This document shows, one piece after another, positions 2,194-61,862 of a stretch of 64,000 bases of DNA. The notes below the pieces were generated by a model that was not told the origin of the DNA, did not search any database, and was given only the letters and a program-made list of their open reading frames with translations. The stretch is taken from contig OZ024753.1 in the NCBI GenBank assembly GCA_964016885.1, positions 42,470,001 to 42,534,000 on the forward strand, in the 5' to 3' direction. Position 1 is the stretch's first letter; each line of letters starts with the position of its first letter. Made by a program: the position numbers and the translations under genes. The stretch comes from Eledone cirrhosa. Its lineage: Eukaryota.

Positions 2194-2384
2194 AACGAGT
2201 AGGACCCCGACGGCAGAGCTCAAGTCGTTTCGACGGCTAATTCTGGACTCAGAATTACCCGTCGAAACGGCTTGAGCTCAGCCGTCGGGGTCCTACTCGT
2301 TCCTATTACCCACTCTACTACCCTAAGTATTGAGTACTTTGTGCGTTATGGTCCACCTGGTTCCTTACCACATTTCCTTCGTTA
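2194..2384 (+). mobile_element. Family A palindromic short element
   Basis: AACGAGTAGGACCCCGACGG... / ...CCGTCGGGGTCCTACTCGTT arms, same tail, (TA)n on both sides. Confidence 0.9.
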
Positions 2385-3149
2385 TATATATATATATATA
2401 TATATATATATATATATATATATATATATATATATATATATACTTACATATATATATATATACATATATATATATATATATACATATATATATATATGTG
2501 TATATATATATATATATATATATATATATATATATATATATATATATATATACTTACATATATATATACATATATATATATATATATATACATATATATA
2601 TATATGTGTATATATATATATATATGTATATATATATATATATATATATATATATATATATATATATATATATATATATATACTTACATATATATATACA
2701 TATATATATATACATATATATATATATGTGTATATATATATATATATGTATATATATATATATATATATATATATATATATACATACATATATATATTTA
2801 TATATATATATATATGTATATATACATATATATATATATATATATATATATATATACATACATATATATATTTATATATATATATATATGTACATATATA
2901 TACATACATATATATATATATATATATATATATATATATATATATATACATATATACATATATATATATATATATATATATATATATATATATATATATA
3001 TATATACATATATAGGCTAATAAAAAATGTGTATATTGTTTGTATATTCACTTATACACACACACGTACACACCACACATACACATATAGATATACACAC
3101 ATACATATACACACACACATATATATACACGCGCGCGCGCGTATGATGG

Positions 3150-3380
3150 AGCTCCGTCGGTGTCGACGAGGAGTGTCCTATCTTTTCGATCACCAAAACA
3201 GCTTGCTCATGATATTAAGTGTCAGAAGCTTGAGAATTCCACAGGTACGTGTACCCCTGAGGGAGACTCAGGGAGACTCAGTATGGCACAGTGTATTACA
3301 AAGCTGGCCTCCTTTGAATTACTGGTACAGTAGCCCATCACACTTTCTAGATACAGACAAGTTGTATTTCCCTCACTTTT
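3150..3380 (-). mobile_element. tRNA-derived SINE body/tail (SINE family 2), degenerate
   Basis: Reverse complement resembles 20460-20650, 9220-9360 and 45030-45195 (CTCCCTGAG..GGGTACACGTGTCTGTGGAATGCTCAG motif). Confidence 0.6.
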
Positions 3381-3624
3381 TCTCATATTTATATATATAT
3401 ACACACACACATACATATACATACACACACATGCATACATGCATACATGCATACATACGCACACACACACACACACACACACATATATATATATATATAT
3501 ACATACATACACACACACACACACACACATATATATAAATATATATTTTTGCACGCACAAAACTTGTATATAGCTACACACAAACGCATATATATATATA
3601 TATATATATATATATATATATATA

Positions 3625-3829
3625 TAACGAAGGAAATGTGGTAAGGAACCAGGTGGACCATAACGCACCAAAGTACTCAATACTTGAGGTAGTAGAGTGG
3701 GTAATAGGAACCAGTAAGACCCCGACAGCTGAGCTCAAGCCGTTTCGACGGCTAATTCTGGACATTTCAGTCCAGAATTAGCCGTCGAAACGGCTTGAGC
3801 TCAGCTGTCGGGGTCTTACTGGTTCCTAT
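3625..3829 (-). mobile_element. Family A palindromic short element
   Basis: Tail on left; arms GGAACCAGTAAGACCCC.../...GGGGTCTTACTGGTTCC; (TA)n flanks. Confidence 0.9.
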
Positions 3830-4774
3830 ATATATATATATATATATATCTATATATATATATATATATATATATATATATATATATATATATATATATA
3901 CATATATATATATATTGTTGCACGCACAAAAACTTGTATACAGCCGCACACACATACGCACACACACACACACACACACACACACAATACACAATACACA
4001 CACATACAAACATTATCTTGCACGCACAAAACTTACACACAGACACACAGATTTTCAAACAAGCGAAAAAGTATAGATGAGAGAGAGAGAAAGAGAAAGA
4101 AAGAGAGAAAGATAGATAGAGAGAGATAGATAGATAGATAGAGAGAGAGAAAGAGAGAGAATGAGAGAGAGCCCTGCAAACACGCATGCGTAGCGAGCAT
4201 CGGTTCTATGTGATGTTAGCTTGCTTCTTCCAAAAGCTGTGTGCTGTTAGTTCATATGGTGAGCTTTTACGCTCGACGCCAAACAGCAAGCGAATAATAC
4301 TTTTAGTCTCTGGCAGCAGAACTCCACCATATATACAGGATACAATAGAGAGAGAGAGAGAGAAAGAGAGAGAGATAGAGATAGAGACAGAGAGAGAGTT
4401 GGCTTTTATTACACATACACCACACATGTATATATATATATATATACATATACATATATAAATAAATAAATATATATATATAGATATATATATATATATA
4501 TATACATACATACATACATATACACACTCCTCAAACACTTTTACAGTGTTTATTTTTTTTTTTTAAATCGGATCTCTCATACTTAAACACACCCCCACTC
4601 ACCCTGATGTAAAACCACCCCGGTTCATTTTATTTTATTTTTTTTCATTTTTTTTTTCATATATATATATTTTTTACTATTTTTATTATTTTTATTATTA
4701 TTATTATTATTATTATTATTACTATTATTATTGTTGTCAAAATCTGTTACACTTACATAAAATGTTCAGGAGTG

Positions 4775-59210: not shown

Positions 59211-59214
59211 TATA

Positions 59215-60645
59215 TTTCTGCTTATCAATTTCTATTTTGGCTGACATCGAAATAGGACTGATAAGCAATATTTTTTTTTTTTACGAAAAAAAAAATCAAT
59301 ATCAAAATTTGCAAGGAAACTAGGAAACAAGAGCCAGAATAGTTTAGTTATTATCCGGTTGAAATATATCAAACACCTAAGGTTAAATTCACACAGTTTG
59401 ATATCGTAAATTTCTGTCTTTCTCTTTCCTAGATATTGATAAGGAATTGGCCAGGAGATACACTTCCAAAGCCAGTGTATATTCAGAAAGTATTATGAAC
59501 GCTTGTAAGTCCTTCCTCCGAGATACACTTACAAAGGCAGTGTAGATTCAGAAAGTATTATGAACGCCTGTAAGGCCTTCCTCCGAGATACACTTACAAA
59601 GGCAGTGTAGATTCAGAAAGTATTATGAACGCCTGTAAGTCCTTCCTCCGAGATACACTTACAAAGGCAGTGTAGATTCAGAAAGTATTATGAACGCCTG
59701 TAAGTCCTTCCTCCGAGATACACTTACAAAGCCAGTGTATATTCAGAAAGTATTATGAACGCCTGTAAGTCCTTCCTCCGAGATACACTTACAAAGGCAG
59801 TGTAGATTCAGAAAGTATTATGAACGCCTGTAAGGCCTTCCTCCGAGATACACTTACAAAGGCAGTGTAGATTCAGAAAGTATTATGAACGCCTGTAAGT
59901 CCTTCCTCCGAGATACACTTACAAAGGCAGTGTAGATTCAGAAAGTATTATGAACGCCTGTAAGTCCTTCCTCCGAGATACACTTACAAAGGCAGTGTAG
60001 ATTCAGAAAGTATTATGAACGCCTGTAAGGCCTTCCTCCGAGATACACTTACAAAGGCAGTGTAGATTCAGAAAGTATTATGAACACCTGTAAGGCCTTC
60101 CTCCGAGATACACTTACAAAGGCAGTGTAGATTCAGAAAGTATTATGAACGCCTGTAAGGCCTTCCTCCGAGATACACTTACAAAGGCAGTGTAGATTCA
60201 GAAAGTATTATGAACGCCTGTAAGTCCTTCCTCCGAGATACACTTACAAAGGCAGTGTAGATTCAGAAAGTATTATGAACGCCTGTAAGTCCTTCCTCCG
60301 AGATACACTTACAAAGGCAGTGTAGATTCAGAAAGTATTATGAACGCCTGTAAGGCCTTCCTCCGAGATACACTTACAAAGGCAGTGTAGATTCAGAAAG
60401 TATTATGAACGCCTGTAAGGCCTTCCTCCGAGATACACTTACAAAGGCAGTGTAGATTCAGAAAGTATTATGAACGCCTGTAAGTCCTTCCTCCGAGATA
60501 CACTTACAAAGGCAGTGTAGATTCAGAAAGTATTATGAACGCCTGTAAGGCCTTCCTCCGAGATACACTTACAAAGGCAGTGTAGATTCAGAAAGTATTA
60601 TGAACGCCTGTAAGGCCTTCCTTCCTCTCAGAACTCAGCATGGAA
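59215..60645 (+). pseudogene. Decayed Penelope-like reverse transcriptase fragment, interrupted by a tandem amplification
   Basis: EIGLIS (59249-66), KFTQFDIVNFCLS (about 59385-59423; FDIxxFYPS motif), LARRYT..IMNACKSFL, SQNSAW after the array. Confidence 0.6.
59456..60620. repeat. 65 bp tandem array, about 18 near-identical copies
   Basis: AGATACACTTACAAAGGCAGTGTAGATTCAGAAAGTATTATGAACGCCTGTAAG(T/G)CCTTCCTCCG. Confidence 0.97.
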
Positions 60646-61014
60646 TATTGTATTTCTTAACAGCTGAAAACTGTGTACTGCCGGGTAACATATTCATATT
60701 CGGGGTTTAAACATCTTTTAATATAATTCACACACTGTGTTATTACTGATTGCCCGTCCCCTCCGGAACTTCAAAAATATGCTCACTAAATTAAATAACA
60801 AATTAAATAACAAATAACACACACGCTCACACGTACATATACATACATACATACATACATATACATACATACATATATATACATACATAAATATATATAT
60901 ATATGTATATATATATACTTAATACATGCATACTGTCGACTCTAATAATGCATTGAGCTTTACGCACCTTACCAACAAGTAATAGTGAATTATTTCACTA
61001 TATTTATATAAATA

Positions 61015-61571
61015 TACTAGCAGTGGTACCCGGCGTTGCACGGGATAAGGTATTTTGGAACGCGGGCCGCCAACAGACCTAATCGTGGAAAAACTGCATG
61101 CCTGGACAATATGTAAAGAAAATAAACCGAATACTCTGATGGCTGGATAATCTTTAAGATTTTTCTCGATGAAGCAGGAAAAAATGCAGGTGTTCACCTA
61201 ATGCGGGCCATAGGGGATAATAAAATAATTTTTTTTTATGTGCACAATATGCCTTGAAATTTCGGGAAAATCGGCTAGACGTAACGCCTCCAAAAAGCCC
61301 TAAAAAGCTGAAAAAATGAAGTTTTTCACCTAATGCGGGCCCTAGGCCATAAAAAAGTTGGATTTTCTTTGCTCACGGTATGAAGAAGAGACTGACTAAT
61401 ACATAGTTACAATTTCAAGGAAATCGGTCTGACGTAACGCATCAAAAAACCCCTAAAAACCTGAAAAAACGCAGTTTTTCACCTAATGTTAAATTTTTTA
61501 TGTGCATAACAATCCCTGAAACATAAGTATTATATGTGTAAAGTTTGAAAACAGTCGGTTGGGTGCTTCTC
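61015..61571 (+). mobile_element. Helentron/DINE-like non-autonomous element
   Basis: Starts TACTAGCAGTGGTACCCGGCGTTGCACGGG (subterminal hairpin); ~140 bp internal repeats (TTCACCTAATG x3, AATTTC..AAATCGG); class assignment from recall. Confidence 0.55.
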
Positions 61572-61862
61572 AGTAGATGGTTAAGATTCAGTCATGGTAG
61601 ACTACCATGACTGAATCTTAACCATCTACTATGTCAGGGTATGTCATGTATCATTTTATTTTATCTGATGAGGACGTACTGTTGAAGTTAACTCAGTACC
61701 TCTGAAATAGGTATAATAAAATATACTTGATCACAAGAATATCTATTTTGTTAATATTTTGAATTAATATTAATAACTCTGGAAAACCATTACTGTTGAG
61801 TGCTTCCAATCTATTGTAAAACTCATTCTTTGATTTATTCATTGAACCTTGTTTAACTTTTA
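61572..61862 (+). mobile_element. Family I hammerhead element with terminal 59 bp perfect palindrome
   Basis: Palindrome 61572-61630 centred on 61601; hammerhead; ACTC..CTG-TT-GAGT hairpin 61776-61801; ends in (TA)n. Confidence 0.85.
61657..61723 (+). ncRNA. Type I hammerhead ribozyme with minimal stem III
   Basis: Perfect stem I TATTTTAT/ATAAAATA; CTGATGA 61665-71; stem II GGA/TCT + GTACTG/CAGTAC; GAAA-T-AGGT-A-TA; predicted cut after 61715. Confidence 0.8.

Follow-up and report, generated by a model that had tools for sequence, protein, structure and literature searches.

Penelope-like elements (PLEs) of the Hydra clade carry a conserved hairpin that occurs twice between their hammerhead ribozyme and their start codon. 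The DNA analysed here, a 64,000-nt stretch of the Eledone cirrhosa genome (the window; GenBank assembly GCA_964016885.1, contig OZ024753.1, positions 42,470,001 to 42,534,000 of the forward strand), holds many copies of this hairpin, in families that, to judge from their sequence, are truncated and mostly head-to-head insertions of Hydra-clade PLEs into (TA)n. The elements are ordered as ribozyme, short insertion end, first hairpin (HP1), 30-85 nt, long insertion end, second hairpin (HP2), and ATG. We consider it fairly probable that each hairpin serves as a docking site for the reverse transcriptase, immediately downstream of where priming occurs; with two starts, one per hairpin, the PLE tail, a known unique extension of these elements (PMC8557442 and PMC3846280, both available to us in part, as are most sources cited below), would be the distance between the two start signals. 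An initial annotation of the window had proposed a cis-acting RNA element of PLEs, recognized by the reverse transcriptase; the conserved element stands, now sharpened to the Hydra clade and to two copies per element, and its binding by the enzyme is what we infer.

The window was scanned with the pattern RCTC-stem (at least 3 bp)-loop-NN-GAGY, taken from the initial annotation's own definition, which matched 33 times, as compared to means of 5.4-7.1 and a maximum of 13 in 40+40 dinucleotide block shuffles. With the bulge set of that annotation, 24 distinct sites were found (mean 1.4 and maximum 5 in 100 shuffles), i.e., the motif is far commoner in the window than in shuffled sequence, and (TA)n followed the hairpin by 25-95 nt at 19 of the 24 sites (0.12 in shuffles); the reverse strand was unusable as a control because the motif is quasi-palindromic. 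All ten hairpin strings that had been cited are exact in position and strand. As an independent check, a covariance model trained solely on 50 hairpins of metagenome elements was run on the window at E≤5; 19 of its 23 matches, including the top 16, were known sites on the strand given for them, and it missed families E, H, and N as well as the copies at 46996, 24934, and 48209. The four other matches were weak and without a family (54253-54278, 15264-15286, and 27594-27627 on the minus strand and 34948-34979 on the plus strand). When hairpins were folded alone, the minimum-energy fold was the bulged structure in six of ten window hairpins and a different one in B1, E, M, and I, and folding was mostly weak (z -0.3 to -2.6). 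Rfam models at gathering score had no match in the window and nine loci, and among the matches listed in an E-value scan nearly all were microRNA models on microsatellites. A typical window copy consists of (TA)n, an inverted arm, a direct arm with a hammerhead-like core, the hairpin, 30-85 nt, and (TA)n; in most copies the inverted arm begins a few bases upstream of the hairpin, which thus sits in the unique extension (i.e., the tail). Approximately 20 motif families occur in 0.79 Mb sampled from the ~3.0-Gb genome.

HP2 was first noticed in full-length copies of one autonomous family (oct1), where it lies 6 nt past the long end and is followed by the start codon; the 3' ends of 30 fetched oct1 copies comprised 11 short ends, 15 long ends, 1 read-through, and 3 unclassified ends. 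In a test of the prediction that other families have an HP2, the genome was searched for each family's long end followed by RCTC, and 3-20 loci were inspected per family. The predicted hairpin was found after the long end of families A, F, I, M, N, E, and H2; the pattern required RCTC only, and the closing pair, the bulge, the GAGC, and the open reading frame (ORF) emerged unasked. Family A (429 matches) showed a full HP2 and ORFs of 717-719 aa in 3543-bp tandem units; an HP2 and a Hydra ORF were likewise seen in families F (47 matches), I (28), M (36; HP2 with a long inner arm), and N (11; 6/8 loci fetched), and family B (25 matches) showed a Hydra ORF and a deviant HP2. Both hairpins are also retained in two ORF-less families, namely E (three matches), with HP2 in a tandem unit of ~1.3 kb that has a hammerhead core, and H2 (455 junction matches), with a unit of ~500 bp (loci L312-L323). 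Family H of the initial annotation is different from H2, and no full-length copy of it was found. The hairpin thus co-occurs with PLE ORFs, in that six families (A, B, F, I, M, and N) lead into Hydra ORFs elsewhere in the genome; these families are related, contrary to what had been proposed, the A and F proteins being 40% identical. HP2 lies ~40-60 nt before the ATG and is carried by full-length copies, and the truncated window copies lack it. The hairpin visible in a window copy, which the initial annotation placed near the 3' end, is not the one that adjoins the copy's own 3' end; the latter, HP2, stays uncopied. Each hairpin lies 3' of an insertion end; family H has no measurable 3' end because a repeat resembling a short interspersed nuclear element (SINE) follows its hairpin.

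Insertion ends are bimodal, lying 5-9 nt before either HP1 (short) or HP2 (long), and coincide with TA-like bases. Among 116 family A ends, 50 were at -8 of HP1 and 53 at -6 of HP2; HP1 and HP2 were preceded by 33 and 24 of 67 oct1 ends, 14 and 10 of 30 family F ends, 6 and 7 of 22 family I ends, and 2 and 3 of 6 family N ends, respectively, and H2 ends were 8-15 nt upstream of the hairpin. One long and one short end were joined in 87 of 91 head-to-head insertions. In 24 short family A palindromes, the short arm reached beyond the long arm in 8 and equalled it in 16, and one full-length oct1 copy has a long arm of 33 nt and a short arm of several kb. Since the short arm holds sequence that is missing from the long arm, and given arms of 33 nt and several kb, neither arm derives from the other by fold-back copying; the arm data favour two priming events on RNA over fold-back copying, although deletions could mimic part of the pattern. 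In most family A palindromes, the arms join 132-138 nt before the long end, inside helix II of the ribozyme (window 2190-2310, among others), and one inverted arm stops at the predicted ribozyme cut site. In four copies (L153:5373-5450, which equals L110, and L315, L320, and L194 at HP2), the 5' limit of the direct arm is the long-end site before HP2, a hint at a circular or tandem template on which one cDNA stopped where the other began.

Hydra elements from other organisms were obtained by a metagenome scan, in which 78 loci were kept, 68 were anchored, 49 had enough upstream sequence, and 40 remained at <70% identity. A search by sequence only, in which pairing was not required, detected the motif in 35 of these 40 elements, 22 of which have it twice; among the controls, it was seen in 4/434 windows from ORFs and in 19/2000 shuffles. 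The bulges of all 58 foreign hairpins (which include one mis-anchored HP2, one doubtful match, and one counted twice) are UU, UC, or UA. The constant 2-nt 3' bulge of the initial annotation therefore holds as U followed by U, C, or A, and the CC reported for family N is a copy variant, other N copies having TC. Read in the 2-nt-bulge register, 56 of the 58 have a Watson-Crick first inner pair, as against ≤10 in four other registers, and permutation of HP1 pairs 1-3 gave 0/20000. In 50 foreign hairpins with an inner arm of 7-15 nt, 92.8% of cells pair (versus 80.8%) and 56 cells are compensatory (22.4 expected; 0/500 shuffles, which ignore relatedness among the elements); the proposal that the inner stem varies yet stays paired is thus borne out, with covariation in one register. 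For the outer stem, the proposed covariation was seen at the first pair only (A-U in families A, B, F, E, I, and N and G-C in H and M); in the 50 foreign hairpins this stem is essentially invariant GCUC/GAGC, and an invariant stem says nothing on structure. The stem is followed by an unpaired ACU that is retained in 55 of the 58, the two hairpins are spaced 55-83 nt apart, the inner arm ranges from 4 to 24 nt, and the loop is free in length and sequence. Of 20 repeat ends in foreign contigs that remained after microsatellite-only rows were dropped, 13 stop 0-6 nt before the hairpin. Of the six new Hydra consensi published by Craig et al. 2021 (PMC8557442), three show the motif when examined by eye; a coral and a sea-cucumber consensus have HP1 in the tail, and a second sea-cucumber family has both hairpins before the ATG.

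The carriers appear to share most of the features that PMC8557442, in its available text, gives for the Hydra clade, i.e., shared protein motifs, a putative C-terminal endonuclease, a hammerhead in the pseudo-long terminal repeat (pLTR), (TA)n targets, inverted truncated copies, and an optional tail. One bystander ORF, that of oct1, has Hydra-type motifs, and its 3' end runs on into a hairpin family. The N-terminal RWR/RWK motif is found in A, oct1, B, F, I, M, and one N copy; DKG is altered to DKT in A, F, I, M, N, and oct1 copy L153 and to NKT in oct1 copy L154, an alteration not seen in B. A CxCX5C linker, together with CxxC and CxH around a conserved E and N, is present in A, oct1, F, and N, in place of which a Neptune-like control ORF has CX2-5CxxC. 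The N-terminal GxKF/Y is absent in A, oct1, and N, and a GVKF string occurs in F. A YIG-type motif lies in the C-terminal 150 aa, CCHH was not seen by eye, and Pfam assigned no family to either ORF submitted. Carrier insertions target (TA)n. Tails measure ~60-90 nt here as compared to 30-40 nt in PMC8557442, and some units exceed 3 kb (e.g., the 3543-bp unit of family A; long 3' untranslated regions [UTRs] occur in F, I, and N), a length of <3 kb being a tendency of Hydra elements and not a rule (PMC8557442). The family A protein has at least 2015 homologues at E≤1e-30 and is 22% identical to a Neptune-like ORF over 440 aa. The protein model (pLDDT 93.8), with telomerase TERT as its best match (TM 0.34), indicates kinship only and no RNA site. 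At L151 and L152, family A units of 3.5 kb with open ORFs of 717-719 aa form tandem arrays, which were probably active recently.

Several other candidate carriers were rejected. A search of the genome for GIY-YIG endonucleases yielded mostly Neptune-like elements, which are without the motif; full-length copies lacked it, and it was found in 0 of 45 tails, which come from few families and are not independent. The 3' end of a second clade, with a YVDD catalytic motif, lacked the hairpin, as did, by eye, the published 3' ends of Naiad_Obim and Naiad_Ovul, and a hairpin family next to a Neptune ORF (L070) turned out to be a separate insertion. With regard to long interspersed nuclear elements (LINEs) with a restriction-like endonuclease, no link was found to the fragment at 39858-40445 (minus strand), which, from its zinc knuckle and restriction-like endonuclease motifs, we take to be part of a non-LTR element. 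Neptune-like PLEs are abundant (L031-L080, e.g., L061) and have a U3-A8-type ribozyme-like core; their 3' ends are fixed as well, and two families show a different short stem there. As these fixed ends lack the motif, the hairpin is not a general PLE signal but a clade-specific one.

In the docking mechanism, the endonuclease would cut both (TA)n strands, and each DNA 3' end would form 2-3 base pairs with the UA-rich sequence that precedes a hairpin. One enzyme would start before HP2 and copy HP1, which gives the long end with its tail, a second enzyme would start before HP1, which gives the short end, and the two cDNAs would be joined head to head. The hairpin signal would never be copied by the start that it directs, so that only tandem or circular templates would yield competent copies. 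A bolder version, which we put forward tentatively and regard as the less probable one, is that twin priming is the obligatory Hydra integration route: a protein dimer might clamp both hairpins of a single RNA, which may be a circle made by the ribozyme, and launch two cDNAs into both strands of the cut (TA)n, in which case a pair of ~25-nt hairpins could act as a minimal, portable signal through which any RNA is mobilised into microsatellites.

A number of observations weigh against docking at the two hairpins. Its mechanistic part is drawn from position and conservation, with genomic ends standing in for cDNA starts, and the 0.94 Mb of genome in which ends were mapped was in part selected for proximity to family A and Hydra ORFs. 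Fixed ends also occur in Neptune-like elements, which lack the motif. The HP2 of family B is reduced to a bulge-less outer stem of 4 bp, although 18 of the 39 ends mapped for B are located 9 nt upstream of it; short ends of B and long ends of M are scattered; and HP2 of N and of many foreign elements has a single inner pair. For 140 ends, no partner arm was detected, and the 8:0 asymmetry of the arms may reflect later deletions and the length filter. Among the foreign elements, 5 of 40 upstream regions lack the motif, the first pair of HP2 does not covary significantly (p=0.06-0.10) because it is nearly invariant, the strand bias of wobble pairs is weak (8 G-U versus 2 A-C), and the UA-rich stretch before 45 of 58 hairpins is an uncontrolled count. 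The Crog and Obim consensi have only deviant strings, and Hydra-1_Amil has none.

Among the alternatives, it is unlikely, though worth weighing, that the signal acts at the DNA level, with the GIY-YIG endonuclease recognising a single-stranded or cruciform hairpin and cutting just upstream to resolve long and short ends. The tail has been ascribed to endonuclease-mediated resolution in the available text of PMC8557442, and a Penelope tail is needed for endonuclease recognition, as cited in PMC11167929; the motif is also quasi-palindromic, and DNA, like RNA, tolerates wobble pairs (G-T). However, HP2 is absent from inserted long-end copies, so that it would have to act on a template longer than the product, the arms are not copies of each other, and the wobble bias, weak as it is, favours the sense strand and not the first cDNA strand. 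We also doubt that the hairpins bind protein for some other purpose (cis packaging, translational autoregulation, or a promoter downstream element), with ends set by UA microhomology with (TA)n. Both hairpins lie in the 5' UTR, with HP2 close to the ATG, the ends coincide with TA-like bases, and conservation of the unpaired ACU would be expected of any protein site; yet the UTRs are AT-rich throughout and the ends nevertheless pick the 5-9 nt before each hairpin, across a spacing that varies from 55 to 83 nt, and ORF-less families keep both hairpins.

That the hairpin might be a tertiary partner of the minimal hammerhead, a second possibility offered in the initial annotation, or might help the ribozyme to fold seems very improbable. 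Hammerhead core strings accompany the hairpin in families F (15/16), I (9/11), E (4/6), and oct1 (14/17, relaxed) and, as a U3-A8 variant, in A, so that the expected co-occurrence was found in these five and not in N or H2; no core was found within 170 nt in 10 of 10 H2 copies, a negative that is weak because the same search gave 0/6 on family N. HP1 lies 36-67 nt after the ribozyme GAAA in 46 foreign pLTRs, and PLE hammerheads cleave poorly alone (PMC4209133) and are protein-assisted (PMC11167929). This range of distances, the unconserved loops, the 4-24-nt inner arm, the second hairpin copy further off, and the 0/45 Neptune-like tails with the motif, despite a ribozyme-like core, all speak against such a partnership. 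Chance, or shared ancestry without selection on structure, is scarcely credible. Relatedness of the families and the frequency of short palindromic words would favour it, but the inner arms differ in sequence and length and the UTRs share <70% identity, yet covariation of pairs is confined to one register and the controls lie close to zero.

One insertion in the window is the (TA)n-flanked family A copy at 2194-2382 (+), a truncated Hydra-clade PLE with an inverted short-end arm, a direct arm, and a tail; it includes the 3' half of a type I hammerhead (2264-2286, GAAA and helix III, with the fold read from the letters), whose predicted cut after 2286 is 25 nt before HP1 (2312-2335). Further family A copies of HP1 are at 1239, 15244, 19163, 27894, 29410, and 50015 on the plus strand and at 3675, 7603, 7821, 29073, and 48092 on the minus strand. 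The shortest family A insertion (27866-27965, +) has a 16-nt inverted short arm consisting of sequence that is missing from its direct arm. For family B, HP1 is at 18379-18399 (+, tail to 18442), with other copies at 28269 (+) and 48209 (-), and for its subfamily 2 at 14104-14125 (+). HP1 copies with a tail are also found on the plus strand for families N (27772-27820, tail to 27865), F (43977-43998, tail to 44060, and 46813-46834, tail to 46897), M (54557-54577, tail to 54617), and I (61776-61801, tail to 61864); hammerhead cores are at 43872-43913 (+; CUGAnGA ... GAAA) for F and 61665-61707 (+) for I. HP1 of the ORF-less families E (29740-29777) and H2 (46996-47021) and of family H (53013-53047, tail interrupted by the SINE-like repeat) is on the minus strand. 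H2 was absent from the initial annotation, as was an extra family with HP1 at 24934-24960 (+) and five copies in the sample. The window also contains ~15 copies of the ~200-bp SINE-like repeat (e.g., 12399-12618, 16729-16966, 22087-22283, 28593-28821, and 52807-53011), long inverted repeats made of microsatellites (11700-12030 and 8459-9060), and minisatellite arrays at 9686-10171 (24 bp), 10316-11103 (98 bp), 35796-36220 (42 bp), 37150-37959 (21 bp), and 59455-60622 (~65 bp); the 24-bp unit recurs inside a (TA)n-flanked repeat with inverted arms (L011).

Short RNA structures that act in cis to recruit a reverse transcriptase, and that non-autonomous elements can borrow, include the 3' stem-loops of stringent LINEs and SINEs, the R2 3' UTR, and hepadnavirus epsilon, all of which lie within the copied region or hold the start. 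By contrast, the Hydra hairpin would lie 3' of the start, uncopied and duplicated. In L1 twin priming, two target nicks prime two cDNAs and an inverted junction results, the second start being opportunistic, whereas here both starts would be fixed, each with its own downstream signal. The two-start mechanism also fits the Poseidon_Ac element (Frangieh et al. 2024, PMC11167929): its enzyme, modelled as a dimer, cleaves both strands and initiates at two internal positions, one on each side of the tail, for which it depends on RNA lying 3' of these starts. However, Poseidon_Ac belongs to another clade, its starts are in an AC-rich stem-loop inside the ORF and without target homology, and the available text names no repeated, covarying signal. 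Similarly, the available text of PMC8557442, which ascribes the tail to endonuclease resolution, does not use the word "hairpin" or describe such a structure. Non-LTR retrozymes (PMC7229834; bioRxiv 10.64898/2026.07.22.740005) are, like family E, non-coding tandem units with a type I hammerhead that are proposed to be PLE-mobilised, and the parts of these two sources available to us name no cis signal for the enzyme; at ~1.3 kb, family E exceeds them in size, and no ribozyme core was recognised in H2. The open literature yielded no description of the hairpin motif, one of which could still be held in closed papers, Repbase notes, or supplements.

PLEs are the closest relatives of telomerase, and how their start sites are chosen and why they have a one-sided tail is described as an open question in the literature consulted. 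If docking at the two hairpins is correct, there would be a sequence-defined, covarying signal for each start as well as a geometric rule, with the start 5-9 nt upstream of the hairpin. For annotation, the hairpin offers a marker of Hydra elements and of the ORF-less elements that depend on them, both densely packed in this window (24 sites in 64 kb); it is also a candidate minimal cis signal for RNA-templated insertion.

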